This document shows positions 8,197 to 29,140 of a stretch of 64,000 bases of DNA, piece after piece (the stretch's first letter is position 1; the number at the start of each line of letters is the position of its first letter). A program made the translations under genes and the position numbers. This DNA comes from Escherichia coli (GTDB taxonomy: Bacteria; Pseudomonadota; Gammaproteobacteria; Enterobacterales; Enterobacteriaceae), in NCBI RefSeq assembly GCF_003790525.1, contig NZ_CP033635.1; one strand, written 5' to 3'. Below the pieces are notes generated by a model that saw nothing but the letters and a program-made list of their open reading frames with translations, was not told where the DNA came from and did not search any database.

Positions 8197-8466
8197 TTAC
8201 ACCTGCTCTTTATCGTGGCGCTTCGCGTCTTGTGTTTTAGCCTGTTCCTGATTCGTATCCGCCTGCTTATCGGCGATAGTTTTCGCAGTAAAATCAGCAT
8301 CCTGACTGGTTTTATCCTGCTTTGGTTCATCATCGCTCATTGCTTTTTTAAAGCCTTTGATCGACGCACCAAGATCGGAACCGATGGAGCCGAGCTTTTT
8401 GGTGCCAAAAAGCAGTACAACGATGACGGCAATAATCAATAACTGCCAAATACTGATACCACCCAT
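8197..8466 (-). CDS. tatA: Twin-arginine translocase subunit TatA
   Basis: [29 protein letters not shown]...; start chosen at MGGIS rather than the longer six-frame ORF. Confidence 0.9.
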
Positions 8467-8544
8467 ACATGTTCCTCTGTGGTAGATGATGATTAAACAA
8501 GGCCGCATTATACGTTACACAGCCCGCCTTGAGCGATGAAAAAA

Positions 8545-10787
<2,243 letters not shown>

Positions 10788-10800
10788 TTCCGGTCTCCTG

Positions 10801-11556
10801 TCAGAACTTATAACCACGATGCAACGCCACAACCCCTGCCGTCAGATTGTAGTAGTCGACACTTTCGAATCCGGCATCCTGCATCATGGCTTTCAGGGTA
10901 TCCTGATCGGGATGCATACGGATGGATTCTGCCAGATAACGGTAGCTGTCGGCGTCGTTCGCGACCAGTGAGCCAATACGCGGCAGCACATGGAAGGAGT
11001 ATGCATCATAGGCTTTGCTCAGCGGCTCGATAATTGGCTTCGAGAACTCAAGCACCAGCAGGCGGCCGCCGGGTTTCAGCACGCGATACATTGAACGCAG
11101 TGCTTTATCTTTGTCGGTGACGTTACGCAGACCAAACGAAATGGTGATGCAATCAAAGGTGTTATCCGGGAACGGCAGCGCCTCAGCGTTCGCTTGAACA
11201 TACTCAACGTTGCCAATCACACCGATATTACGCAGCTTCTCGCGTCCCATTTTGAGCATGGATTCATTGATATCAGCAAGGACCACTTTGCCAGTTTCTC
11301 CGACCAGGCGGGAGAATTTCGCTGTCAGGTCGCCGGTGCCACCAGCCAGATCCAGCACGGTCTGCCCACGGCGTACGCCGCTGCAATCAATCGTGAATCG
11401 CTTCCACAAACGATGAATACCGAATGACATCAAATCATTCATGACATCGTATTTTGATGCCACGGAATGGAAAACGTGAGCGACCATATCCGCTTTTTGT
11501 TCCTTCGCGACGGTCTGAAAACCAAAGTGCGTCGTTTCTTGTGACTTATCCACCAT
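10801..11556 (-). CDS. ubiE: Demethylmenaquinone/ubiquinone C-methyltransferase UbiE
   Basis: 251 aa, SAM-methyltransferase motif [10 protein letters not shown]. Confidence 0.95.
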
Positions 11557-11650
11557 CTCAATGCCTGCTCATCAAAAAATTGTTCCAGAAGTGTAACAGA
11601 TTGGGCGTCGATGCCCTAGATTTCTACCCGGCTTAACTACCCCCAATGGG

Positions 11651-13198: not shown

Positions 13199-13232
13199 TC
13201 CCACAATATGAGATGGAGTTTATATTGTGGGA
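13199..13232. promoter_or_regulatory. Perfect 11-bp inverted repeat TCCCACAATAT-N12-ATATTGTGGGA, candidate operator in the rmuC / IclR-gene divergent region
   Basis: Palindrome read directly in sequence, ~60 bp upstream of the IclR-family start. Confidence 0.5.
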
Positions 13233-13294
13233 TATATCACCTTTTCCCCACGTCATTATGTGGAACACTTCAGCAATATCATCAGGAGAAACGT

Positions 13295-14062
13295 ATGGCA
13301 GAAACCTCTTCAACCACCGCAGGCGCACAAACGTTATTACGTGGACTGGCGGTTCTTAATGCTGTTTATAACGGCTGCCATGACCTAAAAAGTATCGGCG
13401 AGTTCACCGGCACGACCCGGAGCACAACCCATCGTTTAGTCACCGTTCTGGTGGAACAACGCTACCTGCGCCATGTCCCAACGCAGGGCTACCAACTGGG
13501 TGCCAAACTGATCGAATTCGGTGCCAGAGCACTGGAAAGCACCTCGCTGTACGAAATTGCCCAGCCCGTTTTGCAACGCCTTGCCCGTTACACCCTGGAC
13601 ACCGTGCATCTGGGGATCGTTGAAGGCGACGAAGTGCTGTATCTGGAGAAGATCAACAGTCAGCGCGGGCTGGAAATGCGCTCACGCCCAGGCCATCGCA
13701 TGCCACTGGCAATCACCGGCATCGGCAAAGCATTGATACTCAACCGAACAGAAGAAGAGTGGCGCACGCTGTTTAAGACCTGTGGTGATGAAACAAAACT
13801 GGGCGCATTTATTCAGAACATGCGTCGTTATGCCGCCAGTGGTTTTGCTTTTGATCTGGAAGAGAACGAGCCGACTATCCGTTGCGTTGCAGCGCCGGTT
13901 TACAACGCCCGGGATGAAATTGTGGCGGCTATTTCTGTCGCCAGTACCACCACGTATATGTCGCTGGCGCGTCTGGAAGAACTGGCACCTTACGTCAAAT
14001 CCTGTGCAGAAGAGATATCCGCTGAACTGGGCTGGGGTAAGCACGTCCGCAAAGATAAATAA
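13295..14062 (+). CDS. IclR-family transcriptional regulator
   Basis: N-terminal wHTH region (LRGLAVLNAV...) and C-terminal effector domain; start chosen at MAETSST (the six-frame ORF extends from 13208). Confidence 0.75.
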   Translation: MAETSSTTAGAQTLLRGLAVLNAVYNGCHDLKSIGEFTGTTRSTTHRLVTVLVEQRYLRHVPTQGYQLGAKLIEFGARALESTSLYEIAQPVLQRLARYTLDTVHLGIVEGDEVLYLEKINSQRGLEMRSRPGHRMPLAITGIGKALILNRTEEEWRTLFKTCGDETKLGAFIQNMRRYAASGFAFDLEENEPTIRCVAAPVYNARDEIVAAISVASTTTYMSLARLEELAPYVKSCAEEISAELGWGKHVRKDK

Positions 14063-14085
14063 ACCATGATTAAAGGAAACGACTA

Positions 14086-15090
14086 ATGCCGGGAGCACCC
14101 TCATTTATTGCCCTGGACTGGGGAACGTCATCGCTTCGGGCATGGCGTTTTGGCGAATCACCAAATCCACAAGAAAAACGTGAATTCCCCTGGGGGATCA
14201 TGAAATTACCCTCCCAGGCAGCAACACGTGAGGACGCTTTCCACGATACGTTTTTACGTGTCTGCGGCGACTGGCTGGCACAAACCCCATGCCCGGTACT
14301 GGCTTGCGGCATGCTCGGCAGTGCGCAAGGGTGGCAACCAGCAGCTTATTTACCTTGCCCGGTCACTCTCGAGGGTCTGGCGAAGCAGTTGACGCCAGTT
14401 ATCCACCAGCAGCAGACAATGCTGCACATCATTCCTGGCGTGATTAAAGAAGGTGAAATGCCCGAAGTGATGCGTGGCGAAGAGACACAAATCTTCGGTG
14501 CTATCTCGATGGAACCGGCCCTGCAAAACGCGATCCATCAGGGTATGCCAGTGCTGATAGGCTTACCCGGCACACATGCGAAATGGGCAGTAGTTGAAAA
14601 CAACACCATTACCGATTTCCGAACCTTTATGACGGGCGAGTTATTTGATGTTTTATCCCGCCATTCGATTCTCGGTGCCACCATGCATCCTGGAGATGAA
14701 CCGCACTGGGATGCCTTCACCCACGGGCTGACAGCAGCACAAGAGCATCATCAGACCGGATTATTATCGACGCTGTTTTCGACCCGTTCGCGCCTGCTGA
14801 CCAGTAATCTTACGTCGTCCTCGCAGGGGGATTACCTTTCCGGATTACTGATAGGCCATGAATTATGCGGTCTGGCATCCAGTTTGCTACGTGATTTACC
14901 CGCCACAACACCGATCGCCTTAATCGGTAGCGCAAATCTGAACAGCCGCTATTCACAAGCATTCAGCCACGTTTTTCCCGACAGACAGATACACGCCATT
15001 CCTAATGCCACTGAACAGGGATTATGGCGAATCGCCCACGCTGCCGGGTTACTGTCCACCAACGCCAGGGAATGTACCCATGCCATTTAA
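14086..15090 (+). CDS. 2-dehydro-3-deoxygalactonokinase-like (DgoK-family) sugar-acid kinase
   Basis: Motifs IALDWGTSSLRAW, VMRGEETQIFGA, PGTHAKW, DFRTFMTGELF, LSGLLIG resemble DgoK; RBS aggaaa upstream. Confidence 0.7.
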   Translation: MPGAPSFIALDWGTSSLRAWRFGESPNPQEKREFPWGIMKLPSQAATREDAFHDTFLRVCGDWLAQTPCPVLACGMLGSAQGWQPAAYLPCPVTLEGLAKQLTPVIHQQQTMLHIIPGVIKEGEMPEVMRGEETQIFGAISMEPALQNAIHQGMPVLIGLPGTHAKWAVVENNTITDFRTFMTGELFDVLSRHSILGATMHPGDEPHWDAFTHGLTAAQEHHQTGLLSTLFSTRSRLLTSNLTSSSQGDYLSGLLIGHELCGLASSLLRDLPATTPIALIGSANLNSRYSQAFSHVFPDRQIHAIPNATEQGLWRIAHAAGLLSTNARECTHAI

Positions 15091-15709
15091 GACGCTTTTG
15101 CAAAAAACCGGGTTAGTCGCCATTTTACGCGGCGTGAAACCGGATGAGATTGTCGCCATCGGTGAAAAACTGTACGCCGCCGGATTCCGCCTGATTGAGA
15201 TTCCTATGAACTCGCCGGAGGCGTTGCAAAGTATCAGTTTACTGCGCGACGCCCTGCCTAAGGATTGCCTGGTCGGAGCCGGAACTGTGCTTTCGGTAGA
15301 GCAGGTGGTTGCGGTTAAAGAGGCTGGGGGCCAGATTATCGTGATGCCGCATTGCGATACTGCGGTGATCCGTCGCGCCCGTGCGCTGGGTATGTATTGT
15401 GCGCCTGGCGTCGCCACGCCCACCGAAGCCTTTGCTGCCATTGAACATGGTGCTAATGCCATCAAGCTGTTCCCGGCTGAACAAATTACGCCAGAAGTTA
15501 CCAAAGCCTGGCGTGCGGTTATTCCACAATCCGTTCCGATGTTACCGGTTGGCGGTATCACACCGGAAACCATGGCGCGTTATCTGAGCCACGGCGCAAA
15601 CGGCTTTGGCCTCGGTTCTGCGCTATATCACCCCGGCATGACGCCAGAGCAAGTCTATGAAAATGCAGTACTGTTTATGAACGCATGGAACAATTTAAAT
15701 AGCAACTAA
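15080..15709 (+). CDS. 2-dehydro-3-deoxy-6-phosphogalactonate (KDPGal/KDPG-type) aldolase, DgoA-like
   Basis: LVAILRGVKPDE...IEIPMNSP...GAGTVL...CAPGVATPTEAF...GANAIKLFPA...PVGGITPE; start at MPFKTLL overlaps the kinase stop by 11 nt. Confidence 0.7.
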   Translation: MPFKTLLQKTGLVAILRGVKPDEIVAIGEKLYAAGFRLIEIPMNSPEALQSISLLRDALPKDCLVGAGTVLSVEQVVAVKEAGGQIIVMPHCDTAVIRRARALGMYCAPGVATPTEAFAAIEHGANAIKLFPAEQITPEVTKAWRAVIPQSVPMLPVGGITPETMARYLSHGANGFGLGSALYHPGMTPEQVYENAVLFMNAWNNLNSN

Positions 15710-15733
15710 CTGATAAATAAGGATATAAAAGCA

Positions 15734-16708
15734 ATGATAAAACATCTTACCTTACCGAAAAAAATGGCTGCAATGGTACTTCTTGCAGGCGCTGCCCTCA
15801 GCATTGCGCCTGTACAGGCAGCCTCCTACCCAACCAAACAGATCGAGTTAGTCGTTCCCTACGCTGCCGGAGGCGGTACGGATCTGGTTGCCCGTGCCTT
15901 TGCTGATGCCGCCAAAAACCATTTACCCGTCAGCATCGGGGTTATCAATAAACCTGGCGGAGGCGGTGCTATCGGCCTGAGTGAAATCGCCGCTGCCCGC
16001 CCTGGCGGTTACAAAATTGGTTTAGGCACGGTTGAACTGACCACCCTTCCCAGCCTCGGAATGGTGCGTTTTAAAACCAGCGATTTTAAACCCATTGCCC
16101 GTCTAAACGCGGATCCGGCTGCTATCACCGTCCGTTCTGATGCGCCGTGGAATAGCTATGAAGAATTTATGACTTACGCCAAAGCGAATCCCGGAAAAGT
16201 ACGCATTGGTAACTCAGGCACCGGAGCTATCTGGCATCTGGCGGCAGCTGCACTGGAAGACAAAACGGGTGCGAAGTTTTCTCATGTCCCGTATGACGGC
16301 GCAGCCCCTGCCATTACAGGCCTGTTAGGCGGGCATATTGAAGCGGTTTCCGTAAGCCCAGGAGAAGTTATCAACCATGTGAAAGGCGGCAAGCTGAAGA
16401 CACTGGTAGTGATGGCGGATGAGCGAATGAAAACCATGCCTGACGTCCCGACGTTAAAAGAGAAAGGCGTTGATCTCTCCATCGGCACCTGGCGCGGCCT
16501 GATTGTGTCGCAAAAAACGCCGCAGGATGTGGTGGATGTTCTGGCAAAGGCAGCAAAAGAGACGGCTGAAGAGCCTGCATTCCAGGATGCACTGCAAAAG
16601 TTGAATCTCAACTATGCATGGCTTGACGCTGCCAGCTTCCAGACCCAAATCAGCGAACAGGAAAAGTACTTTGACGAGTTGCTGACTCGCCTGGGCCTGA
16701 AAAAATAA
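15734..16708 (+). CDS. Tripartite tricarboxylate transporter (TTT) periplasmic substrate-binding protein, TctC/Bug family
   Basis: 324 aa with signal peptide (MIKHLTLPKKMAAMVLLAGAALSIAPVQA); characteristic YPTKQIELVVPYAAGGGTDL. Confidence 0.75.
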   Translation: MIKHLTLPKKMAAMVLLAGAALSIAPVQAASYPTKQIELVVPYAAGGGTDLVARAFADAAKNHLPVSIGVINKPGGGGAIGLSEIAAARPGGYKIGLGTVELTTLPSLGMVRFKTSDFKPIARLNADPAAITVRSDAPWNSYEEFMTYAKANPGKVRIGNSGTGAIWHLAAAALEDKTGAKFSHVPYDGAAPAITGLLGGHIEAVSVSPGEVINHVKGGKLKTLVVMADERMKTMPDVPTLKEKGVDLSIGTWRGLIVSQKTPQDVVDVLAKAAKETAEEPAFQDALQKLNLNYAWLDAASFQTQISEQEKYFDELLTRLGLKK

Positions 16709-16721
16709 ACCTGAGGTACGG

Positions 16722-17231
16722 TTGATGAACACAAAACAGTCTGTTGCTCAACTCGCCGTACCGCACCGCAAGCGCCTTTCATCAACGATGGTGGTGGCGC
16801 TGTTACTTTGTGTGGTTGCTGGCGCGGTGATGATTAATGCCGCTGATTTTCCAGCAACTGCCATTGAAACGGATCCCGGTGCAAGTGCCTTCCCTACCTT
16901 CTATGCCTGTGCCCTGATTGTGCTCGCTGTCTTGCTGGTGATACGCGATCTTTTGCAGGCAAAACCAGCCTCTTGCGCCAACGCACAGGAAAAACCGGCA
17001 TTCAGGAAAACGGCAACAGGAATTGCGGCAACCGCGTTTTATATTGTGACGATGAGCTACTGCGGTTATCTCATTACTACTCCTGTTTTCCTCATCGTCA
17101 TTATGACGTTGATGGGCTACAGGCGATGGGTACTCACACCGGGTATTGCGCTGCTGTTAACGGCAATCCTCTGGTTGCTGTTTGTCGAAGCGTTACAGGT
17201 GCCATTGCCTGTCGGCACATTTTTCGAATAA
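16722..17231 (+). CDS. TTT small membrane subunit, TctB-like
   Basis: 169 aa, four predicted TM helices, immediately between TctC-like and TctA-like genes. Confidence 0.65.
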   Translation: MMNTKQSVAQLAVPHRKRLSSTMVVALLLCVVAGAVMINAADFPATAIETDPGASAFPTFYACALIVLAVLLVIRDLLQAKPASCANAQEKPAFRKTATGIAATAFYIVTMSYCGYLITTPVFLIVIMTLMGYRRWVLTPGIALLLTAILWLLFVEALQVPLPVGTFFE

Positions 17232-17243
17232 CAGGGGCCAGCA

Positions 17244-18734
17244 ATGTTTGAAAGTGAACTTTTAACTCAGGGTTTTTCGACATTACTCAATAATCCTCAG
17301 GCGCTGCTGTTTGCCACTTTTGGGGTGATGCTGGGTATTGTGATTGGCGCTTTGCCTGGTCTGACAGCGACCATGGGTGTGGCGATTTTGCTGCCTTTCA
17401 CCTACGGCATGGAGCCTGTTTCTGGCTTGTTGATGATTTGCGGCGTCTTTTTTGGTGGCGTCTACGGTGGTTCTATCACCGCAATTTTGCTCAAAATTCC
17501 CGGAACGCCTGCCGCCGCAGCCACCGCTATTGATGGTTATGAGCTGACGAAACAGGGAAAAGCAGGGCTGGCATTGAGTGCCGCCACGTTCTCTTCCTTT
17601 AGTGGCGGAACGCTCAGCATTATCGTGCTGATGTTTCTCTCTCCGGTACTTGCCAGTTGGGCGCTGAAATTTAGTGCCTCGGAGTCCTTCGCCCTGGCAA
17701 CCTTCGGACTGAGCATTATTGCCAGTATTTCCGGTGAGTCACTGATTAAAGGGCTGATTGCCGGGGTTGGCGGATTGCTGATCGCAACGATAGGCCTTGA
17801 TCCAATGGGCGGTTTTCCACGGTTTACAGGTGGATTTGTGGAGCTGATGAATGTGCCATTTATCCCGGTGATGATTGGTTTATTTGCTGCTTCAGAAGCA
17901 TTCCGCTCTATGGAGCAAAACCAGCAAATTCGTCAGGGGGCGAAGGTGGCTATCGGCAGTCTGTTACTGCCCTGGCAAACACTACGCCGCATTGCATTAA
18001 CCATTTTGCGCTCATCAGGATTAGGGGTTTTTATCGGCATGATCCCCGGTGCGGGGGCGGATATTGCAGCTTTTGTTGCCTATAACGAAACTCGTCGTTT
18101 CAGTAAGACACCAGAAAACTTTGGTAAGGGTGAAATTAAAGCTGTGGCCTCCTGTGAGGCAGGCGCGAATGGCTGCACCGGTGGCGCATTGTTACCTATG
18201 CTGACGCTGGGGATCCCTGGCGATGCGGTAACCGCCATCATGCTGGGCGCGTTAACGTTACAGGGAATGCAACCAGGCCCGCTGATGTTTACCGACCACG
18301 GCGATATGGTTTATACACTGTTTGTCGGCATGATCTTCTGTTACTTCATGCTACTAGTTCTTGGACTGCTCTCTTTGAAAGTCATCGGTAATGTGGTGAA
18401 AATTCCCGGCAATATTCTCACACCGATGATCCTCGCACTTTGTGTGGTCGGGACTTATGCGTTGAACAATAGCCTGTTTGATGTTGGCATTATGCTGATT
18501 GCAGGCGTGGTGGGCTATTTCATGCAGAAAGGAGGATATCCGGCATCACCCGTAGTGCTGGCATTGATTATGGGGCCAATGGCGGAAAGTAATTTTCGCC
18601 GTGCGCTGTCGCTTTCTGGTGGGTCACTCGACTTTCTGTATACCCGACCGATAACTCTGGCATTGCTGACTCTGGCAGCCTTTACGCTACTGACGCCAAT
18701 AATCCGCAAAATAATGCGTTTACGGCGTCAATAA
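17244..18734 (+). CDS. TTT large permease subunit, TctA-like
   Basis: 496 aa polytopic membrane protein with duplicated G-rich motifs (LPGLTATMGVAILLP / IPGAGADIAAFVAYNE). Confidence 0.75.
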   Translation: MFESELLTQGFSTLLNNPQALLFATFGVMLGIVIGALPGLTATMGVAILLPFTYGMEPVSGLLMICGVFFGGVYGGSITAILLKIPGTPAAAATAIDGYELTKQGKAGLALSAATFSSFSGGTLSIIVLMFLSPVLASWALKFSASESFALATFGLSIIASISGESLIKGLIAGVGGLLIATIGLDPMGGFPRFTGGFVELMNVPFIPVMIGLFAASEAFRSMEQNQQIRQGAKVAIGSLLLPWQTLRRIALTILRSSGLGVFIGMIPGAGADIAAFVAYNETRRFSKTPENFGKGEIKAVASCEAGANGCTGGALLPMLTLGIPGDAVTAIMLGALTLQGMQPGPLMFTDHGDMVYTLFVGMIFCYFMLLVLGLLSLKVIGNVVKIPGNILTPMILALCVVGTYALNNSLFDVGIMLIAGVVGYFMQKGGYPASPVVLALIMGPMAESNFRRALSLSGGSLDFLYTRPITLALLTLAAFTLLTPIIRKIMRLRRQ

Positions 18735-19674: not shown

Positions 19675-19793
19675 AAATCACTCTTCATTCTGCAGGACTG
19701 CATAAAAGATGAGCCGATTCAGGCAATGTGATTTGTTGCATGCTGACTATAGTTAACATTGCGCAACATTTTTATAAGGGTACGGAGAATACC

Positions 19794-20603
19794 ATGGCAA
19801 CAACACAACAATCTGGATTTGCACCTGCTGCATCGCCTCTCGCTTCGACCATCGTTCAGACTCCGGACGACGCGATTGTGGCGGGCTTCACCTCTATCCC
19901 TTCACAAGGGGATAACATGCCTGCTTACCATGCCAGACCAAGGCAAAGCGATGGCCCACTGCCAGTGGTCATTGTAGTGCAGGAAATTTTTGGCGTGCAT
20001 GAACATATCCGCGATATTTGTCGCCGTCTGGCGCTGGAGGGGTATCTGGCTATCGCACCTGAACTTTACTTCCGCGAAGGCGATCCGAATGATTTTGCCG
20101 ATATCCCTACGCTGCTTAGCGGTCTGGTAGCAAAAGTGCCTGACTCGCAGGTGCTGGCCGATCTCGATCATGTCGCCAGTTGGGCTTCCCGCAACGGCGG
20201 CGATGTTCATCGTTTAATGATCACCGGATTCTGCTGGGGTGGACGTATCACCTGGCTGTATGCCGCGCATAATCCACAACTGAAAGCAGCGGTGGCATGG
20301 TACGGCAAATTAACCGGCGATAAGACGCTGAATTCACCGAAACAACCTGTTGATATCGCAACCGATCTTAACGCGCCGGTTCTCGGCTTATATGGTGGTC
20401 AGGATAACAGCATTCCGCAAGAGAGTGTGGAAACGATGCGCCAGGCGCTGCGGGCAGCAAACGCGAAAGCAGAGATTATCGTGTACCCGGATGCAGGGCA
20501 TGCGTTCAACGCCGATTATCGTCCGAGCTATCATGCCGAGTCTGCGAAAGACGGCTGGCAGCGAATGTTGGAATGGTTTACACAGTATGGTGTTAAAAAG
20601 TAA
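19794..20603 (+). CDS. ysgA: Dienelactone hydrolase-family protein (carboxymethylenebutenolidase-like) YsgA/DlhH
   Basis: MATTQQSGFAPAASPLASTIVQTPDDAIV... alpha/beta hydrolase; RBS ggag before the chosen ATG. Confidence 0.85.
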   Translation: MATTQQSGFAPAASPLASTIVQTPDDAIVAGFTSIPSQGDNMPAYHARPRQSDGPLPVVIVVQEIFGVHEHIRDICRRLALEGYLAIAPELYFREGDPNDFADIPTLLSGLVAKVPDSQVLADLDHVASWASRNGGDVHRLMITGFCWGGRITWLYAAHNPQLKAAVAWYGKLTGDKTLNSPKQPVDIATDLNAPVLGLYGGQDNSIPQESVETMRQALRAANAKAEIIVYPDAGHAFNADYRPSYHAESAKDGWQRMLEWFTQYGVKK

Positions 20604-20669
20604 CGCCATAGTCGCTAAATCTGATGATTAAGCTCACACAATTTCAACGATTTTTTTAATCTCAAAACC

Positions 20670-20698
20670 ATACAGCATCAAAAAATTTGTTGCTGTAT
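20670..20698. promoter_or_regulatory. Perfect inverted repeat ATACAGCA-N13-TGCTGTAT, with a related direct-repeat copy (AAAAATTTcGTTGCTGT) ~70 bp downstream; candidate operator upstream of the accessory operon
   Basis: Read directly in the 256-bp ysgA / hydrolase intergenic region. Confidence 0.45.
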
Positions 20699-20859
20699 GC
20701 CACTCTTTGACTCCCTTCACATTCGTCATCACACCACCTGCTGAATGCAAAAATTTCGTTGCTGTGCGGCAAACTTTTTTCCTGTTTTGTGCCGCTTTTC
20801 TCCTGAATACTCGTTCTCAGAACAACTGGATCGTTTAAACATCAGACAGGAGATTTACC

Positions 20860-21528
20860 ATGACGCAATCCATTTTTCAGGCTCAACCCTTTGAATTACC
20901 TTTTGATCCGCGCACAACTGCACTGGTCATGATCGACATGCAGCGTGACTTTGTCGAAGCAGGGGGCTTCGGTGAGGCACTGGGCAATGATGTTTCACTG
21001 GTACGCACGGCTATCGCACCATGTACAGAGGTGCTGGCAGCCGCACGTCAAAAAGGAATTATGGTTATTCATACTCGTGAAGGCCATCGTGCAGACTTAA
21101 GCGACTGCCCGCCAGCCAAACTGACGCGCGGCGGAAAAACCTTTATTGGTGAACCAGGACCGATGGGACGCATTCTGGTCAGAGGTGAAGCAGGTCATGA
21201 CATCATTCCTGAACTGTACCCGGTGGCAGGCGAACCGGTGATTGATAAGCCTGGCAAAGGCGCGTTTTATCAAACCGACTTACATCTGATTTTGCAAAAC
21301 CACGGTATCAAGACGCTGATAGTTTGTGGTGTTACAACCGAAGTTTGCGTAACCACCACCGTGCGCGAAGCAAATGATCGTGGCTATGAATGCATTATCC
21401 CGGAAGATTGTGTCGGCTCCTATTTCCCGGAATTCCAGAAATACGCCCTCGAGATGATCAAAGCACAAGGTGCCATTTTCGGTTGGGTTACTGATTCCAA
21501 AGCCATTATTGCAGGCCTGGAAGGCTAA
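20860..21528 (+). CDS. Isochorismatase-family cysteine hydrolase (amidohydrolase of RutB / biuret-hydrolase / N-carbamoylsarcosine amidase type)
   Basis: 222 aa; ALVMIDMQRDF (Asp), conserved Lys, LIVCGVTTEVCV (nucleophile Cys); RBS aggag. Confidence 0.75.
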   Translation: MTQSIFQAQPFELPFDPRTTALVMIDMQRDFVEAGGFGEALGNDVSLVRTAIAPCTEVLAAARQKGIMVIHTREGHRADLSDCPPAKLTRGGKTFIGEPGPMGRILVRGEAGHDIIPELYPVAGEPVIDKPGKGAFYQTDLHLILQNHGIKTLIVCGVTTEVCVTTTVREANDRGYECIIPEDCVGSYFPEFQKYALEMIKAQGAIFGWVTDSKAIIAGLEG

Positions 21529-21533
21529 CACCG

Positions 21534-22394
21534 ATGGTACAGGTTACGCTTTGCGCATCGTCGTTGGGATATCTTTTCCCGCAGAATGAAACGCAAGATT
21601 TACGTCTACATAGCGCTTTTAAACATGCGGTAAATCTGTATTCAGACGCGGGAACATTCATCACTCTGTTGTGTGCGCAAACGTATCTGAATCTCCCTGA
21701 TGCAGCCAGAGTCTGGCTACCTGAATGTTGGGACTGGCGAAGAGAGATTGCCCATTCAGATCCCATTCAGTTAACCCCAGGCTTACTGCGGACACCTCGA
21801 TTTTGTGTGGCGCTCGAAAACGCAACGCTCTGGCAGTCGCCATTTGTGGGGGGAATGCTGACACTTGAGGCATTCCCTTTGGTTTTCCAGCACTACCCAA
21901 CGATGGCATCGCAACGGCTTTTATTTTGTCTGGAACATAACGTTCAAAGCACATTGCACCTGCCGGATAGTCTCACGCACCAGGGATTAGCGATTATGGA
22001 GCATCCAGATGCGCTGGAACGCCAGGTGCCACAACTGATCGGCTTTGGTAAAGGCTTAACGCCCGATGGAGATGACTATTTGTTGGGCTATCTGGCAGCA
22101 CTCTGGTTATGGCAACTCCCTGCACCACTTGCCGATCATCAATACCGGTTGCAGCAGGTAATTGATCAACATGCGCACAACACCACGGATATCAGTCGTC
22201 ATTATCTGGAGCGTGCGCTTCAGGGACATTTTTCAGAACCGATTTGCCAGTTACTCGCACAACTGGTTGGGAGTGCATCGGCAATGACAATCGCATCCTG
22301 TGCAGAACAGGTCATGCAATTTGGCGCAACGTCAGGAGTAGATTGCCTTGCAGGAATGCTGCATGGCTTTCGAACCCTGAACACCATAAATTGA
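21534..22394 (+). CDS. DUF2877-like protein (YlbF/AllH-like component of the FdrA module)
   Basis: 286 aa; assignment from family resemblance and position beside FdrA-like and DUF1116-like genes; the least secure assignment in the cluster. Confidence 0.5.
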   Translation: MVQVTLCASSLGYLFPQNETQDLRLHSAFKHAVNLYSDAGTFITLLCAQTYLNLPDAARVWLPECWDWRREIAHSDPIQLTPGLLRTPRFCVALENATLWQSPFVGGMLTLEAFPLVFQHYPTMASQRLLFCLEHNVQSTLHLPDSLTHQGLAIMEHPDALERQVPQLIGFGKGLTPDGDDYLLGYLAALWLWQLPAPLADHQYRLQQVIDQHAHNTTDISRHYLERALQGHFSEPICQLLAQLVGSASAMTIASCAEQVMQFGATSGVDCLAGMLHGFRTLNTIN

Positions 22395-22488
22395 TTTCAA
22401 CCTTTTCTCCCGTAGCCCGTTTATGGGGCTACACGGGGATGCTTTGCCCGAATTTTGCTATCGGGCGGAATGAAACAGGCGTAACAGC

Positions 22489-24048
22489 ATGAAAGTTAAA
22501 TATAAAGTTTTCAGTAATCTTTATCAGGACTCAGTTTCTCTGATGCAGATTTCCGCGCAAATCAGCAAGTTGCCCGGTATTCAACAGGCCTCGGTCGTCA
22601 TGGGAACACCCAATAATCTCGAGCAATTGAGCGATGCGGGTCTGGGTAACGAAATCAACGCCAGTCCCAATGATTTAGTGATTGCAGTCATGGGTGAAGA
22701 AGATATTTGCAATGAAGCACTGGTACTGGCCCAGCAACGTCTGACCAGCAAACCCGATGATGAAACGGATAGTGGCATTAAAACACCGGAAAAGGTCAGC
22801 CTGGAAATGGCACTGGAAGCCGAGCCCGAAGCCAACCTGGCACTCATTTCTGTACCGGGAGACTACGCCGCCGCCGAAGCAATTAAAGCGTTAAACCTCG
22901 GAATGAACGTGATGATGTTCAGCGATAACGTCAGTATCGTGCAGGAAAAATCCATCAAAACGCTTGCCCGAGAACGTCAGCGCATCGTAATGGGACCTGA
23001 CTGTGGAACCGCCATTGTTAACGGCATTCCGTTAGGCTTCGCTAATGTGGTGAAACGCGGAGCAATTGGTGTTATTGGCGCGTCAGGCACCGGGCTACAG
23101 GAAGTGACTTGCCGAATCGACCAGCTCGGAGCGGGTATTTCTCAGGCGTTGGGAACAGGCGGACATGATCTCAGTGAAGAGATTGGTGGAATATCGATGC
23201 TCTTCGCTTTAGATGCGCTGGCGCAAGACGATGAAACTCGCGTGATTGTGCTTATTTCAAAACCGCCTTCACCGATCGTTGCCCGGACTATTCTGGAGCG
23301 TGCCGAGGCTTGTGGAAAACCCGTGGTGGTGAATTTCCTCGGTGCGAATCCGCATGATCTGGCACGTCCCAATATCACCGCGGCCACCACACTTGCCAGC
23401 GCCGCAAATATCGCCGTGGCGTTACTGAATGATCAACCACTTCCGACTATCGAGACCGAAATTTCCTGCGACGATCTCACAATGTTACAAAACGCCTGCC
23501 AGCGCCTGCCAGCCCATCGCCAGGCGATACGCGGTGTTTTCGCCGGAGGAACCTTCTGCTACGAAGCGCAACTTATCTGCCAACAAAAGGGATTCAGCGC
23601 AGCCTCCAATACGCCAGTTGCGGGTAATCGTGCTCTGGCAAATATCTGGCAAAGCGAAGATCACACGTTGATCGATATGGGCGACGATGATTTCACCCGT
23701 GGCAAACCGCATCCAATGATCGACCCGACTCTGCGCAATCAACGTCTGCTCAACGAACTCAACGACTCACACACTGCCGTCGTGTTATTCGACCTGGTAC
23801 TTGGTTATGGCGCTTCCACGACGCCTGCCAGCGAATTACTGGACCAACTTTCACACATCGACATGAATAACGCACCGTTGCTGATTGCGCACGTTTGCGG
23901 AACGGAAGCTGATCCGCAAATACGCAGTCAGCAGATAAGCGCACTACAAAATGCAGGGGTCATCATCGCCAGCAGCAATGCACAGGCGGCGTTATGGGCC
24001 AGCACCGTTGCACAGACTCAGTTGCAGAAAAAGGGGCTAAACGCATGA
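22489..24048 (+). CDS. FdrA-like protein (succinyl-CoA synthetase alpha-like / acyl-CoA synthetase-like fold)
   Basis: 519 aa; MMFSDNV, VMGPDCGT, GVIGASGTG, HPMIDPTLRNQ motifs typical of FdrA/AllF family. Confidence 0.75.
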   Translation: MKVKYKVFSNLYQDSVSLMQISAQISKLPGIQQASVVMGTPNNLEQLSDAGLGNEINASPNDLVIAVMGEEDICNEALVLAQQRLTSKPDDETDSGIKTPEKVSLEMALEAEPEANLALISVPGDYAAAEAIKALNLGMNVMMFSDNVSIVQEKSIKTLARERQRIVMGPDCGTAIVNGIPLGFANVVKRGAIGVIGASGTGLQEVTCRIDQLGAGISQALGTGGHDLSEEIGGISMLFALDALAQDDETRVIVLISKPPSPIVARTILERAEACGKPVVVNFLGANPHDLARPNITAATTLASAANIAVALLNDQPLPTIETEISCDDLTMLQNACQRLPAHRQAIRGVFAGGTFCYEAQLICQQKGFSAASNTPVAGNRALANIWQSEDHTLIDMGDDDFTRGKPHPMIDPTLRNQRLLNELNDSHTAVVLFDLVLGYGASTTPASELLDQLSHIDMNNAPLLIAHVCGTEADPQIRSQQISALQNAGVIIASSNAQAALWASTVAQTQLQKKGLNA

Positions 24049-25469
24049 ATACCTTATTTAATCAGCCTTTGAAGGTTGTGAACGCGGGACTACACAGTTT
24101 TGCTGACAATATTCAACATGCCGGGGGAAGCGCAATTGCACTCAACTGGCAGCCACCAGCACAAGGCGATATTGACGCTGGATTGGATCTGGCATCGTTG
24201 CTACGTCATCCCCTGGTAGAAAATGCCAACCAAATCGCCATGACACGTTATCTCGAAGCACAGCCCGTGCTGGTGGATGTCATGCTCGCTAAAGAGGCCA
24301 TTCCAGAAATGGCTGAACAAAAACGTATTTTGCACTCTGGCCCGCCGATTGCCTGGGAAGAGATGTGTGGTCCGGTAAAAGGGGCGATTATTGGTGCCAT
24401 GCTGTACGAAGGTTGGGCCACCAGCCAGCAAGACGCTGAAAACCAAATAAACGCAGGCGAAATCGACCTTGCCCCTTGTCATCATTATCACGCGGTTGGC
24501 CCAATGGCAGGCATCATCAGCCCGTCGATGCCGTTATGGGTGGTAGAAAACAAAACCAACGGCCACCGTACTTTTAGCAATTTCAATGAAGGTCTGGGTA
24601 AGGTTCTCCGTTTTGGCGCCAATAACGATGAAGTTCTCAATCGTCTGGCCTGGATGCGCGATGAACTGGCGCCGGCAATGAAAGCAGCAATCGCACAACA
24701 CGGCGAGCTGGAACTCAAGCCATTAATGGCGCAGGCGCTGCATATGGGGGATGAAGTTCATAACCGCAATGCTGCCGCTACCGGTTTGCTGATTAAGCGC
24801 CTGCTCCCGGCATTGCTGGCCTGCTCTCTTCCACAGGAACATATCCAGCGCGTCGTGGCATTTATCACCGGTAACGATCACTTCTTCCTCAATCTTTCGA
24901 TGGCCGCCTGTAAAGCAATGATGGATGCCGCCGCCAATGTACCGTTCAGTTCAATGGTTACGGTGATGGCGCGTAACGGGGTGAATTTTGGTATTCGGCT
25001 TTCCGGTACTGGCGATCGCTGGTTCCAGGCTCCTGCCAATGCCGTTGAAGGTCTGTTCTTCCCCGGATTTGGCGTCGACGATGCCGCTGCTGACCTGGGT
25101 GATAGCGCAATTACTGAAACCGCAGGTGTGGGTGGCTTCGCGATGGCGTCGTCTCCGGCGATCGTCAAATTTGTGGGAGGCACCCCTGCCGATGCCACCA
25201 ATAACAGCCGTCGGATGCAAGCCGTCACCCTCGGCGGTAACCCCGCATTTACACTTCCAGCCCTCAATTTTGCCCCCACCGCAGCAGGGATTGATGCGCG
25301 TAAAGTGACCGATCGCGGCATTTTACCGGTCATCAATACGGGTATCGCCCACAAACAAGCGGGGGTCGGGCAAATTGGTGCCGGGATCACCACTGCGCCG
25401 ATGGCCTGTTTTGTCGCCGCTGTACGTGCACTGGCGGAGATCGTCGCAAAGGAGAACCATCATGGTTAA
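24045..25469 (+). CDS. DUF1116-like protein (YlbE/AllG-like)
   Basis: ~474 aa; start ATG overlaps the FdrA-like stop (ATGA), so translationally coupled. Confidence 0.6.
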   Translation: MNTLFNQPLKVVNAGLHSFADNIQHAGGSAIALNWQPPAQGDIDAGLDLASLLRHPLVENANQIAMTRYLEAQPVLVDVMLAKEAIPEMAEQKRILHSGPPIAWEEMCGPVKGAIIGAMLYEGWATSQQDAENQINAGEIDLAPCHHYHAVGPMAGIISPSMPLWVVENKTNGHRTFSNFNEGLGKVLRFGANNDEVLNRLAWMRDELAPAMKAAIAQHGELELKPLMAQALHMGDEVHNRNAAATGLLIKRLLPALLACSLPQEHIQRVVAFITGNDHFFLNLSMAACKAMMDAAANVPFSSMVTVMARNGVNFGIRLSGTGDRWFQAPANAVEGLFFPGFGVDDAAADLGDSAITETAGVGGFAMASSPAIVKFVGGTPADATNNSRRMQAVTLGGNPAFTLPALNFAPTAAGIDARKVTDRGILPVINTGIAHKQAGVGQIGAGITTAPMACFVAAVRALAEIVAKENHHG

Positions 25470-26418
25470 GCCACTGGCTGTCGTCGCGGTTGGCGGCAAT
25501 GCGCTCATTCAGGACGAGCAACGCAATAGTATTCCCGATCAATATGTTGCAGTGATGGAAAGCGTGCAGCATATCGTTGATATGGTTGAAGCCGGATGGG
25601 ACCTGGTGCTAACCCACGGTAATGGCCCGCAGGTGGGCTTTATTCTGCGCCGCTCTGAACTCGCCAGTAACGAAGTTTCTCCGGTTCCACTTGATTACGC
25701 CGTGGGTGATACACAAGGTGCAATTGGCTACATGTTCCAGAAAGCACTGCATAACGAATTGGCTCGCCGTGGCATAAACAAACCGGTAATTGCCCTGGTG
25801 ACACAAACGCGAGTCAGCCCACATGACGATGCTTTCGCCAGCCCCAGTAAACCAATTGGCGCGTTTCTCGATGAAGCAACGGCCCAACAACGCCAACAAC
25901 AACTCGGCTGGACGCTGATGGAGGACGCCGGGCGTGGTTGGCGGCGTACAGTTCCCTCTCCTGCCCCACTGGAAGTTATTGAGCACGACACCATCGCTCA
26001 CCTGGTGCGCCAGGGATATCTGGTTATTGCCTGCGGCGGCGGCGGTATTCCGGTGGTGCGAGACGGACAACAACTGAAAGGTGTAGAAGCCGTGATCGAT
26101 AAAGATCTGGCCTCCGCGCTGCTCGCCAGTCAGTTAGGCGCAGATCTGCTGGTGATCCCCACCGGTGTAGAAAAAGTGGCGATTAACTTTGGTACACCAC
26201 AACAACAGTGGCTCGACGCTATCAGCGTTGCCGAAGCGCAAACGCTGTTGCGGGAAGGTCAGTTTGGTGTCGGCAGTATGCAACCCAAAGTGGAAGCCAT
26301 TGTTGATTTCATCAATGCCAGCCAGCAACAAGGCAAACAGGCCAGCGGCCTGATTACTTCACCGCAAACCATAAAAGCAGCCCTGGCGCATCAGAGCGGT
26401 ACATGGATAACCCTTTAA
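25462..26418 (+). CDS. Carbamate kinase
   Basis: MVKPLAVVAVGGNALIQ... amino-acid-kinase fold, THGNGPQVG, IACGGGGIPVV; RBS aggag; overlaps the upstream gene by 8 nt. Confidence 0.8.
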   Translation: MVKPLAVVAVGGNALIQDEQRNSIPDQYVAVMESVQHIVDMVEAGWDLVLTHGNGPQVGFILRRSELASNEVSPVPLDYAVGDTQGAIGYMFQKALHNELARRGINKPVIALVTQTRVSPHDDAFASPSKPIGAFLDEATAQQRQQQLGWTLMEDAGRGWRRTVPSPAPLEVIEHDTIAHLVRQGYLVIACGGGGIPVVRDGQQLKGVEAVIDKDLASALLASQLGADLLVIPTGVEKVAINFGTPQQQWLDAISVAEAQTLLREGQFGVGSMQPKVEAIVDFINASQQQGKQASGLITSPQTIKAALAHQSGTWITL

Positions 26419-26434
26419 TTCTCTGGAGAACACA

Positions 26435-26824
26435 ATGACTACAACGCTTTTAGCCGTTAACGGAACGCTGATGCGCGGCCTGGAACTCAACCCAAATATG
26501 CAAAAAGCGGGCGGTATTTTTGTCCGTGAAGACCGAACTGACGCCCATTACCGGTTGTGGAGTATTAATGATCGCCATCCGGGAATGATTCGCGTGAATG
26601 AAGGAGGAACACACGTCGACGTAGAAATTTGGCAATTACCGCTGGCCAGTTTTGCCGCTCTGTTAATGAGCGAACCCGCTGGGCTGGCAATTGGCAAAAT
26701 CAAACTTGCCGATGGTAGCGAAGTGCTGGGCGTACTGGCAGAAAACTGGCTGACCGAAGGCCAACGGGAAATTACAGAACTGGGTAGCTGGCGCAAATAC
26801 ACCGGGCATTTTCATACTGTGTAA
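26435..26824 (+). CDS. Gamma-glutamylcyclotransferase-like (AIG2/GGCT fold) protein
   Basis: 129 aa; N-terminal AVNGTLMRG resembles the YGSLM-type GGCT motif. Confidence 0.55.
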   Translation: MTTTLLAVNGTLMRGLELNPNMQKAGGIFVREDRTDAHYRLWSINDRHPGMIRVNEGGTHVDVEIWQLPLASFAALLMSEPAGLAIGKIKLADGSEVLGVLAENWLTEGQREITELGSWRKYTGHFHTV

Positions 26825-26849
26825 CGCGCATTTATAAAGGGAACATACT

Positions 26850-28073
26850 ATGCGTAAAAAAGAAGAGAATCTGAATACGGCATCAGGATTGCGTATTGCC
26901 ATGATTTTGCTGGGTATTGCCGTCACACCTGTGCTGTTGTCATCCTCAAGCCTCGGCAATCAACTTTCCAGCGGCAGTTTAATTAGCGTCGTATTGTTAG
27001 GCGGCGTCATTCTGACCTTACTTTCAGCCATCACCATTAGCGTGGGAGAAAAAGCCCGCCTACCAACGTATGGCATTGTGAAATATTCGTTTGGCGAAAA
27101 AGGGGCCATCGCCATTAACATTTTGATGGCGATAAGTCTGTTCGGCTGGATTGCCGTTACCGCCAATATGTTTGGTCATTCGGTACATGACTTACTGGCT
27201 CAACATGGACTGGAAGTTCCACTGGCACTGTTAGTGGCGGCTGGCTGTGTCATTTTTGTCGCCTCTACGGCATTTGGCTTTGCCGTTCTGGGAAAAATTG
27301 CCCAGGTTGCCGTGCCGGTTATCGCGCTGGTGCTGTGTTACATCCTCTATGTGGCAACCCATACCGAAGTGGCAGTACCAGCGGCGATTGTGGAGATGAA
27401 TACAGGTGTCGCCGTTTCCACCGTTGTTGGCACCATTATTGTGCTGGTTGCCACACTGCCTGATTTCGGTAGTTTTGTGCATAACCGCAAACATGCGCTG
27501 ATTGCCGCAGGCGTGACGTTTCTGGTTGCCTACCCTCTGCTCTACTGGGCGGGTGCAACGCCGAGCGCCATTAGTGGTCAGGGATCTTTACTGGGTGCGA
27601 TGGCGGTATTCGGTGCGGTTCTGCCTGCGGCGCTGTTGTTGATTTTCGCCTGCGTCACCGGTAACGCGGGCAATATGTTCCAGGGCACGCTGGTGGTTTC
27701 CACACTGCTTACCCGCTTTCCCAAATGGCAGATTACCGTGGCGCTGGGTATCCTTTCCGCCATCGTAGGCAGTATGGATATTATGGCGTGGTTTATTCCG
27801 TTTCTGCTGTTCCTGGGTATCGCCACGCCACCCGTTGCCGGAATTTATATCGCTGACTTTTTCTTTTATCGCCGTAATGGCTATCAAGAGTCAGTGTTAG
27901 CCCAGGAGTCACAGATTAAAGTGCTGACATTCGCAGCATGGATCATAGGCGCAGCGGTTGGCTTTATGACCGTAAAAGGCTTATTCACCCTGACGACGAT
28001 CCCTTCGGTAGACTCGATTCTGGTGGCATGTATCGCTTATGCGATTCTCAGTCGGGCAAGTCAACACCGCTAA
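26850..28073 (+). CDS. NCS1-family nucleobase/cytosine-type permease (CodB-like)
   Basis: 407 aa, ~12 TM helices, overall similarity to purine-cytosine permeases. Confidence 0.7.
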   Translation: MRKKEENLNTASGLRIAMILLGIAVTPVLLSSSSLGNQLSSGSLISVVLLGGVILTLLSAITISVGEKARLPTYGIVKYSFGEKGAIAINILMAISLFGWIAVTANMFGHSVHDLLAQHGLEVPLALLVAAGCVIFVASTAFGFAVLGKIAQVAVPVIALVLCYILYVATHTEVAVPAAIVEMNTGVAVSTVVGTIIVLVATLPDFGSFVHNRKHALIAAGVTFLVAYPLLYWAGATPSAISGQGSLLGAMAVFGAVLPAALLLIFACVTGNAGNMFQGTLVVSTLLTRFPKWQITVALGILSAIVGSMDIMAWFIPFLLFLGIATPPVAGIYIADFFFYRRNGYQESVLAQESQIKVLTFAAWIIGAAVGFMTVKGLFTLTTIPSVDSILVACIAYAILSRASQHR

Positions 28074-28150
28074 TTCCTGGGTATACTCAGGCAATGATTA
28101 CGGCTGAATCTGGAGAGATTCAGCCACTTTACCACTGACCAGGAAGCCTT

Positions 28151-29047
28151 ATGTTCATCTCAGACGAAACGCTTCGTGTTATTCATCTGGTCGCCAGACA
28201 CCAGAGCATTACCACCGCAGCCGAGCAGTTAAATAAAGTCCCTTCCGCCATCAGTTACACCATCAAGAAAGCGGAAGAGAGCCTGGGCGTTGAACTGTTC
28301 ATTCGTAAGGGACGCTATATTGAATTATCGCCAGCGGGAAGTTACTTCATCGAACATAGCAAAACTATTCTTGGCGACCTGGAAGCATTAAAGCGCAACA
28401 CAGTGCTGATTCACGATGGTATTGAGCGTGAACTGACAATTGCGGTAAACAATATTATTCCTGGTGATTTGCTGGTGGCATTTATTCGAGATTTTGAACG
28501 GCAATTCACATCAACAACACTGACGGTAGATCTTGAGGTATACAACGGCTGCTGGGATGCGCTGTACAGTAAGCGTGCCGATCTGGTCTACGGTGCTCCT
28601 CATGCAGTGCCAAGCAGTGAAGGCATCATTAGCGAACCGGTCGGACAAATGGAATGGGATTTTGTCGTCAGCCCACTCCACCCACTGGCAGCGAAGCGGC
28701 ATCCATTAGAAAACAGTGAATTGCGTCATTATCCAGCGGTTTGTATCCGCGATACCTCCGTTAACTTCCCCCCGATGCAAGCCTGGTTGTTGGAAGGACA
28801 AAAACCCATTTTTGTTCCTGACTTCGCTACGGCAATCGCCTTAATAGAACAAAACGTCGGTATTGGTTATATTCCACATCATCTGGCATTGCCGTTATTG
28901 AACAGCGGTAAATTGCTTAAAAAGCCAATGCGCGAACATAAACACGCCACCAAGTTATTTCTTGCCGCTCGTTCCGATGGTATGGGCAAAGCCTGTCAGT
29001 GGTGCATAGAATATTTAAGAAATCCGCAATTAATTTTCTGTTCCTGA
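28151..29047 (+). CDS. LysR-type transcriptional regulator
   Basis: N-terminal HTH (LRVIHLVARHQSITTAAEQLNKVPSAISYTIKKAEESLG) plus substrate-binding domain. Confidence 0.8.
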   Translation: MFISDETLRVIHLVARHQSITTAAEQLNKVPSAISYTIKKAEESLGVELFIRKGRYIELSPAGSYFIEHSKTILGDLEALKRNTVLIHDGIERELTIAVNNIIPGDLLVAFIRDFERQFTSTTLTVDLEVYNGCWDALYSKRADLVYGAPHAVPSSEGIISEPVGQMEWDFVVSPLHPLAAKRHPLENSELRHYPAVCIRDTSVNFPPMQAWLLEGQKPIFVPDFATAIALIEQNVGIGYIPHHLALPLLNSGKLLKKPMREHKHATKLFLAARSDGMGKACQWCIEYLRNPQLIFCS

Positions 29048-29140
29048 AGATCCACATCATACCTGGCATACATAGCAAAATGGCTTCCGGTGTTGGAAGC
29101 CATTATTGTGCTGCAATTTACAATGACTCGTTAATACTCA

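Follow-up and report, generated by a model that had tools for sequence, protein, structure and literature searches.

What does a cysteine hydrolase of the isochorismatase family act on, if its gene stands at the head of a cluster that also encodes a nucleobase-type permease, the subunits of a carbamoyltransferase and a carbamate kinase? The question is raised by a stretch of 64,000 nucleotides of Escherichia coli DNA (NZ_CP033635.1; hereafter, the window), in which such a gene is located at 20860-21528. A first-pass annotation of this DNA had described the product as a probably active hydrolase that would generate a carbamoyl intermediate, with its substrate given as unknown. We lean slightly towards the reading that it is a TrtA-type first enzyme of an eight-gene catabolic operon, in which triuret would be turned into carboxybiuret, carboxybiuret into carbamoyl phosphate, and carbamoyl phosphate used to make ATP. 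The reading starts from three observations, namely an active site of TrtA type, the identity of the parts of the cluster and a linkage that is conserved across species.

The hydrolase and its characterised relatives

The hydrolase open reading frame (ORF) has exactly the coordinates given by the first-pass annotation. It begins with ATG, carries an AGGAG Shine-Dalgarno sequence 7 nt upstream of the start and encodes 222 aa, and both motif strings cited for it, VMIDMQRDF and LIVCGVTTEVCV, are found in the translation. Positions 19700-29100 are 100% identical to the chromosome of E. coli SMS-3-5 (NC_010498.1), where RefSeq names the product WP_000194414.1, ‘cysteine hydrolase family protein’. 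Homologues match it down to E = 1e-128, and therefore it is no chance ORF.

20860-21528, plus strand: TrtA-type isochorismatase-like cysteine hydrolase (triad D26/K130/C163; ligand residues E74, K133 and Q203; second shell F37, N43, A135, E161, Y188 and I206)

Based on the NCBIfam models, the top family is BiuH (NF050097) with 279.8 bits, which is under the curated cut-off of 370, while the RutB model (TIGR03614) reaches 111.9 bits against a cut-off of 377.95. Identity as a pyrazinamidase/nicotinamidase (PncA) or as YcaC was rejected, with only 47.8 and 33.9 bits, respectively. When solved structures are ranked, TrtA (6XIX, 270.6 bits) comes before BiuH (6AZO, 237.5 bits) and RutB (about 105 bits), and in the MAFFT alignment the hydrolase is 58% identical to TrtA and 53% to BiuH. 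These family and structure matches bear out its earlier placement in the branch of the isochorismatase family that hydrolyses ureides and amides. Two findings that would have spoken against that placement, loss of the catalytic Cys and orthology to a streptothricin- or pyrazinamidase-type enzyme, were not seen, since the Cys is kept and the PncA score is the best of the pyrazinamidase type.

The residues of the active site can be compared with those of TrtA from Herbaspirillum sp. BH-1 (PDB 6XIX/6XJE), which has the triad D24/K129/C162 and binds its ligand through E72, K132 and, from the partner subunit, Q202 (PMC7948467). In addition, six consensus positions differ between the two enzymes, being F35, N41, A134, E160, Y187 and I205 in TrtA versus Y, Y, S, D, T and V in BiuH (PMC7948467). 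In the alignment, all 14 of the catalytic, ligand and discriminating positions of the hydrolase are identical to those of TrtA (D26, F31, F37, N43, E74, K130, K133, A135, T159, E161, C163, Y188, Q203 and I206). Among them, D26, E74, K133, Q203 and F31 correspond to the TrtA ligand contacts D24, E72, K132, Q202 and F29, and the second shell (F37, N43, A135, E161, Y188 and I206) has the TrtA residue at six of six positions. Thirteen of the 14 positions are invariant among 29 diverse homologues. The triad that the first-pass annotation called intact is indeed so, as D26/K130/C163 align with D24/K129/C162 of TrtA and are invariant in the 29 homologues. The motif GVTTEVC around the catalytic Cys is also conserved; the cis-peptide of TrtA lies at V157-T158.

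The AlphaFold2 model of the hydrolase (predicted local distance difference test score, pLDDT, of 91) has N-terminal strands at residues 4-6 and 13-15, and an N-terminal two-strand beta-sheet is a feature that is present in TrtA and lost in BiuH (PMC7948467). The model shows the Rossmann-like alpha/beta fold typical of isochorismatase-like cysteine hydrolases (Pfam PF00857), and its top Foldseek matches are TrtA, with TM-scores of 0.92-0.93 to TrtA and BiuH alike and 0.87 to RutB. In a neighbour-joining tree of 30 sequences, rooted on K-12 RutB with 200 bootstraps, the BiuH clade stands apart in 200 of 200 replicates, and the characterised TrtA (6XIX) is nested within the E. coli-like clade.

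The hydrolase is thus an intact enzyme of TrtA type, predicted to be catalytically competent, and a new member of the TrtA family. It would act on triuret; the TrtA match, the six discriminating residues and the sub-cut-off scores for BiuH and RutB leave triuret, or an acyl-urea of nearly the same shape, as the candidate substrate. The hydrolase and the Herbaspirillum enzyme share the fold, the triad, the ligand residues, the six second-shell positions and the N-terminal beta-hairpin. However, the neighbours differ, since TrtA is found with BiuH and AtzF (and TrtB), whereas the E. coli hydrolase is found with an FdrA-type carbamoyltransferase, a carbamate kinase and a stand-alone homologue of the allophanate hydrolase (AH) C-domain, and with no BiuH.

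The gene cluster and its linkage across species

The hydrolase gene heads a cluster of eight genes on the same strand. The first two spacers are gaps of 5 and 94 nt; then come two overlaps, of 4 and 8 nt, and the last three spacers measure 16, 25 and 77 nt. The other seven genes are as follows.

21534-22394, plus strand: DUF2877 protein, AllH/YahE-type small subunit of an FdrA-type carbamoyltransferase (RefSeq annotation), starting 5 nt past the hydrolase stop
22489-24048, plus strand: FdrA-family subunit, AllF/YahF paralogue with a succinyl-CoA-synthetase-alpha-like fold (NF004760, 496 bits against a cut-off of 433; PDB 3DMY, FdrA, 290 bits)
24045-25469, plus strand: DUF1116 subunit, AllG/YlbE/YahG paralogue (PDB 3CLQ match), overlapping the FdrA stop by 4 nt
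25462-26418, plus strand: carbamate kinase (TIGR00746, 364.4 bits against a cut-off of 358.25), overlapping the DUF1116 gene by 8 nt
26435-26824, plus strand: stand-alone AH C-terminal domain homologue (‘AHC’) of 129 aa, matching only positions 472-595 of the 600 in the allophanate hydrolase model
26850-28073, plus strand: NCS1-family permease, annotated ‘cytosine permease’ (CodB model, 146 bits against a cut-off of 326)
28151-29047, plus strand: LysR-type regulator (PunR/AllS subfamily) that closes the cluster (PunR 286.7 bits, cut-off 345; AllS 214.3 bits, cut-off 372)

The permease (26850-28073) and the carbamoyl-phosphate module with which the hydrolase had been paired are therefore both present. 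The three subunit genes are encoded together with the carbamate kinase at 21534-26418, and generation of the carbamoyl intermediate by the hydrolase is consistent with the gene order and co-occurrence. Orthology of the permease to CodB was rejected, because its score is under the CodB cut-off. Annotation of the cluster shows no BiuH or amidase-signature gene among its genes.

The three subunit families have a recently established function. In 2024, FdrA, YlbE (DUF1116) and YlbF (DUF2877) were shown to be the oxamic transcarbamylase AllFGH, which converts oxalurate and phosphate into oxamate and carbamoyl phosphate, and AllK, the catabolic carbamate kinase, is YbcF (PMC11326118, PMC9843812). 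The allF, allG and allH genes are all needed for the activity, and according to its authors AllFGH is the sole route by which enterics without urease can assimilate nitrogen from ureidoglycolate or oxalurate (PMC11326118). The DUF2877 protein of the cluster is 26% identical to YahE and, over 110 aa, 33% to AllH; for this protein no NCBIfam match and no PDB relative was found. The identities to the Yah and All proteins are 42% (YahF) and 40% (AllF) for the FdrA subunit, 46% (YahG) and 49% (AllG) for the DUF1116 subunit, and 48% (YahI) and 38% (AllK) for the carbamate kinase. Judged by such values, the module is a third E. coli paralogue of AllFGH, about equally far from the All and the Yah proteins.

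The module has in common with AllFGH and AllK of K-12 the same three families and a carbamate kinase, and phosphorolysis of an N-acyl-urea followed by ATP formation is presumed to be alike; with yahE-F-G-I of K-12 it shares the gene order DUF2877-FdrA-DUF1116-carbamate kinase. However, identities of 26-49% are at paralogue level, and the module is an orthologous group of its own that travels with the TrtA-type hydrolase. The upstream chemistry is also different, as the all genes are found with allantoin and AllD, and the yah genes with the amidohydrolase YahJ. No all genes adjoin the cluster, and no ureidoglycolate dehydrogenase or other oxalurate-forming gene is present in it. E. coli can thus hold as many as three such modules in parallel, each made up of an FdrA-type transcarbamylase and a carbamate kinase and each tied to other upstream chemistry. 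In the K-12 locus (L082, yahB-yahJ, 2502-11508), yahE-F-G-(H)-I is paired with an ankyrin protein besides YahJ. In one related locus (L053), the module adjoining the TrtA-type gene is nearer to the Yah type.

The product of 26435-26824 had been taken for a GGCT-fold protein that could cyclise or decyclise an intermediate. The small protein is real, but a generic role as a GGCT-type cyclotransferase was rejected on its match to the AH C-domain and its identity to PDB 5C5Z. Against the allophanate hydrolase model (TIGR02713/NF006043), it matches the C-domain only, with 104.7 bits versus a cut-off of 487; its sequence is that of 5C5Z (100% identity), and over its full length it can be aligned with the C-domains of 4GYR and 4ISS. 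It should be noted that 5C5Z was deposited under the name ‘Glutamyl-tRNA amidotransferase’, and that the annotation of E. coli B uses the same label. The protein shares Y39, E64, E103 and the W-R-x-Y end motif with the C-domains of AtzF, KlAH and GbAH, but lacks their amidase-signature N-domain. In the alignment, Leu occupies position 12 of the protein in each of the 61 stand-alone copies, whereas the seven fused domains all have His there (His492 of KlAH). Fan and colleagues are said to have ascribed, in 2013, a catalytic role in the C-domain to KlAH His492. The stand-alone group has an invariant polar set of its own (N9, T11, R14, N21, E32, H48, E80 and K88), and the 129-aa protein represents a distinct subfamily of AH C-domain homologues.

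Is the association of these genes found outside E. coli? One genome per species was scanned for 100,044 species, and 319 relatives of the hydrolase were found, among which the best 80 loci, with 67-99% identity, were kept. Partner genes were sought by tblastn of the cluster proteins within 10 kb of the hydrolase homologue, with the following results.

FdrA: 71 of 80 loci
DUF1116: 69 of 80 loci
Carbamate kinase: 63 of 80 loci
AH C-domain homologue: 65 of 80 loci, in five of them as full-length AtzF
NCS1 permease: 49 of 80 loci
All four core partners: 59 of 80 loci
Colinear on one strand: 54 of 80 loci
Second, BiuH-type hydrolase: 2 of 80 loci

A LysR homologue was also found in 58 of these loci, on either side of the hydrolase gene. 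Among the taxa represented are Enterobacterales, Vibrionales, Pasteurellales, Burkholderiales, Neisseriales, Xanthomonadales, Alphaproteobacteria, Mycobacteria, Chloroflexi and one Desulfotomaculum metagenome-assembled genome. Because 70 of the 77 linked FdrA copies match the FdrA of the cluster best, and not AllF or YahF, they form an orthologous group of their own.

Several individual loci are informative. For example, locus L063 contains AtzF, the TrtA-type gene, a permease and an AtzE-family carboxybiuret amidase, that is, the classical carboxybiuret-consuming route, which supports carboxybiuret as the product of the hydrolase. Two others (L066 and L072) contain a full-length AtzF, the TrtA-type gene, a permease, DUF2877-FdrA-DUF1116 and a carbamate kinase but no BiuH, which fits a transcarbamylase that bridges carboxybiuret to allophanate. 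The TrtA-type gene is accompanied by a BiuH-type gene in L067 and L076.

Where DUF2877 is detected in the related loci, its identity is 26-59%. In the Caballeronia loci L036, L037, L041 and L049 and the mycobacterial loci L065-L077, FdrA directly follows the hydrolase, and no DUF2877 was detected. In addition, a conserved membrane protein of about 515-560 aa adjoins the TrtA-type gene in 23 of the 80 loci (L053, at 10723-12279; L048, L054, L062, L063, L066, L067 and others). It has no match to a Pfam or NCBIfam family, and the loci that carry it lack the NCS1 permease, with the exception of L003. It is probably a permease for the same substrate as the NCS1 permease.

A putative route from triuret, and its alternatives

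Triuret, or carbonyldiurea, arises when uric acid is oxidised and serves amoebae as a store of nitrogen. TrtA converts neutral triuret into anionic carboxybiuret and NH3, and carboxybiuret breaks down to biuret, its half-life being about 20 min (PMC7948467). Biuret and urea are dead ends for organisms without BiuH or urease. A fast carboxybiuret-consuming enzyme is therefore expected beside the hydrolase.

From the parts described above, we infer the substrate, the order of the steps and a new substrate for the transcarbamylase. Triuret, or a near-isosteric acyl-urea, would enter via the NCS1 permease, and the hydrolase would take off one terminal amide as NH3, leaving anionic carboxybiuret. 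The DUF2877/FdrA/DUF1116 enzyme would then convert carboxybiuret and phosphate into carbamoyl phosphate and allophanate; each of oxalurate, carboxybiuret and allophanate is an N-acyl-urea that ends in a carboxylate. Allophanate may be phosphorolysed in a second round, with carbamate left, or may be handled with the help of the small AH C-domain homologue, which would handle or stabilise an N-carboxy intermediate; where a full AtzF is present, AtzF would hydrolyse it. Finally, the carbamate kinase would form ATP, NH3 and CO2 from carbamoyl phosphate and ADP. The net result would be that a polyurea yields nitrogen and substrate-level ATP with no need of biuret hydrolase, allophanate hydrolase or urease. 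The order of steps proposed here is the simplest that employs every conserved gene. The architecture would be new, with TrtA coupled to a phosphorolytic carbamoyltransferase and a carbamate kinase in place of BiuH and AtzF.

Several points weigh against this route. The activity of AllFGH has been shown on oxalurate/oxamate only (PMC11326118); carboxybiuret, biuret or allophanate would be new substrates for an FdrA-type enzyme. The characterised TrtA, to which the hydrolase is only 58% identical, sits with BiuH and AtzF and not with FdrA (PMC7948467). Single second-shell mutations fail to interconvert the specificities of TrtA and BiuH (PMC7948467), and residue identity to TrtA is consequently suggestive, not proof. 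The joint clade of TrtA and the E. coli-like sequences versus BiuH is supported in only 117 of 200 bootstraps. Since the TM-scores are equal for TrtA and BiuH, the fold confirms the family only and does not discriminate between the two. As for the partners, the 129-aa protein lacks the His that is common to all fused AH C-domains. Moreover, DUF2877 was detected in only 42 of the 71 FdrA-positive loci, though allF, allG and allH are all reported as required; in the remaining loci, it may be dispensable, too divergent to detect or encoded elsewhere.

Then, could the operon work as proposed on a different starting compound? The hydrolase might act on another acyl-urea or ureide that fits a TrtA-like pocket, for example a different oxidation product of purines or uric acid such as oxaluric acid amide or formyl- or carboxy-biuret, and TrtA itself has trace formylurea activity (PMC7948467). 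The FdrA-linked clade is at least 67% identical internally and only 58% identical to the characterised TrtA, from which it also differs in genomic context; the regulator belongs to the AllS/PunR (purine and ureide) subfamily, and the permease to a nucleobase family. We nevertheless regard another substrate as rather unlikely. The first-shell and the published second-shell residues are all TrtA-identical, the characterised TrtA nests in the clade, and some members of the clade (L063, L067 and L076) sit with AtzE/AtzF or BiuH in classical triuret/carboxybiuret clusters.

It is improbable that the hydrolase is a BiuH, converting biuret into allophanate for the transcarbamylase or the C-domain homologue to process. 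Its score stays under the curated BiuH cut-off, the six discriminating positions differ from those of BiuH and are all TrtA residues, and the BiuH clade is separate in every bootstrap replicate, even though BiuH is the best NCBIfam family and many homologues are named ‘biuret amidohydrolase’ by the Joint Genome Institute (JGI). The similarity to BiuH of Rhizobium leguminosarum (6AZO), with the same fold and triad, 53% identity and an equal TM-score, is nonetheless in line with such a function, as is the fact that allophanate would be an oxalurate-like anionic acyl-urea.

Another view is that two independent pathways are merely co-located, one deamidating triuret or biuret and the other breaking down oxalurate as AllFGHK does. 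Oxalurate is the sole demonstrated substrate of the enzyme family (PMC11326118), and biuH/trtA genes beside allFGHK in comammox bacteria and ammonia-oxidising archaea have been read as separate biuret and oxalurate routes (PMC12625717). However, K-12 already has the allFGHK module for oxalurate, and the copy in the cluster is a separate orthogroup; for want of BiuH, AtzF and urease, E. coli could take the hydrolase product no further. The linkage is tight, with overlapping or near-abutting genes, and kept across phyla (54 of 80 loci colinear), while an oxalurate-forming gene such as ureidoglycolate dehydrogenase is missing from the cluster. We consequently give little credence to two separate pathways.

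A RutB-like ureidoacrylate amidohydrolase in pyrimidine-nitrogen salvage, as read for genomic region 29 of the avian pathogenic E. coli (APEC) strain BEN2908 from 31.8% identity to RutB and the CodB similarity of the permease (PMC12928451), is hardly credible, as the RutB score is far below its cut-off and below those of TrtA and BiuH, the permease is under the CodB cut-off, and a RutB-type pyrimidine route is rejected in the absence of rutA and rutC-G from the cluster.

Returning to the route from triuret, a broader version of it can be put forward only tentatively. In this version, a widespread urease-free phosphorolytic polyurea pathway would begin with a TrtA-type hydrolase that gives triuret a carboxylate handle. 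The three-subunit FdrA-type enzyme would phosphorolyse carboxybiuret and then allophanate, which would provide two carbamoyl phosphates, and thus two ATP, for each triuret and set free all four nitrogens. The pathway might be linked to extraintestinal fitness. The only literature that we found linking triuret to carbamate kinase is the nitrifier paper (PMC12625717), where the link is one of gene co-location. We found no literature linking triuret to uropathogens, and nothing relevant on biuret use by E. coli in the phenotype-microarray literature. If the route is correct, the FdrA/DUF1116/DUF2877 enzyme, shown so far on oxalurate (2024), would stand for a family that acts on several acyl-ureas, and the co-location of biuH/trtA and allFGHK in nitrifiers could be read again as one pathway. 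Urease-negative bacteria could then draw all the nitrogen, and ATP, from polyureas that stem from uric acid oxidation, amoebal excretion or urea fertiliser.

Distribution in E. coli, upstream region and other parts of the window

The site between metE and ysgA is that of the 16-kb ‘tkt1 genomic island’, also termed genomic region (GR) 29, of B2 extraintestinal pathogenic E. coli (ExPEC), and the published lists call the eight genes hypothetical or ‘RutB-like’ (PMC3349570, PMC12928451). A complete copy of the island is present in 80.6% of B2 uropathogenic (UPEC) and 94.1% of B2 neonatal meningitis-associated (NMEC) strains (PMC3349570). The cluster occupies the same metE-ysgA site with the same eight genes; the difference is that SMS-3-5 and E. 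coli B hold only the 8.5-kb ureide half, without tkt1, the phosphotransferase system (PTS) genes and rpiR. Of 5426 complete E. coli genomes, 1559 (about 29%) carry the hydrolase gene, among them E. coli B, Nissle 1917 and sequence type 131 (ST131) strains.

The cluster is intact in E. coli B/BL21. K-12 is without it, and its ysgA and metE genes are 39 bp apart. The upstream neighbour is ysgA in Citrobacter and Buttiauxella too, and the position is therefore old in Enterobacteriaceae. The cluster may thus have been lost from K-12, and not recently acquired by the carrier strains.

The cluster is also carried by plasmids. In the complete E. coli genomes there are 124 plasmid copies of the hydrolase gene, with about 93% nucleotide identity, and PLSDB contains 82 plasmid records with 95-99% protein identity, 78 from Escherichia and four from Klebsiella, whose hosts include chicken, pig and human. 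The one plasmid inspected closely, the conjugative IncFIB/IncFIC plasmid pACN001-B (NC_023327.1, L088, 11001-19179), carries all eight genes in a slightly divergent copy, with identities for the hydrolase of about 96% at the protein level and about 93% at the DNA level. On this plasmid, the cluster lies near insertion sequence (IS) elements and a bacteriocin-immunity/iron ABC-transporter region. Another sequence, NZ_CP109956.1 (L085), was grouped with pACN001-B under the divergent copy of the eight-gene cluster.

If the proposed route is correct, it would give a testable function to eight genes that about 29% of complete E. coli genomes carry, that form one half of the tkt1 island and that occur on IncF plasmids from human, poultry and pig as well. 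The putative pathway is spread over many bacterial genera in several phyla, with enrichment in B2 ExPEC chromosomes and in IncF virulence plasmids from avian and human E. coli. Such a distribution would connect extraintestinal fitness with the triuret that oxidation of uric acid yields in urine and bird excreta.

The region between ysgA and the hydrolase gene may contain regulatory sites.

20604-20859, plus strand: intergenic promoter/operator region from ysgA to the hydrolase gene, with two copies of AAAAATTT(N)GTTGCTG at about 20681-20703 and about 20750-20772, and a TCTCCTGAATACTC box

The two copies are about 70 bp apart, and the upstream motifs, including the box, are kept across E. coli, Citrobacter, Buttiauxella, Edwardsiella and Serratia. 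They are candidate operator sites for the LysR regulator. For the sigma-54 consensus, there is no match in 20604-20859 at up to two mismatches, and the count over the whole window is that of chance; for the sigma-70 consensus, no plus-strand match was found upstream of the hydrolase gene. The counts of the sigma-70 promoter and terminator scans are at or under the shuffle expectation.

Elsewhere in the window, a second insertion relative to K-12 is located at 13208-18734, between rmuC and udp, and is also present in E. coli B. It contains genes for an IclR regulator, a 2-dehydro-3-deoxygalactonokinase, a KDPGal-type aldolase and the TctCBA tripartite tricarboxylate transporter, and it matches the ‘islet’ of the tkt1 island paper (PMC3349570). 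In the region 40000-46000, the GC content falls to 0.41-0.48. A YPO3983-family gene and a DUF943 gene are found at 41350-42692, between rarD and corA, and a gene of the ‘SAM hydrolase/SAM-dependent halogenase family’ adjoins yigE at 44895-45797.

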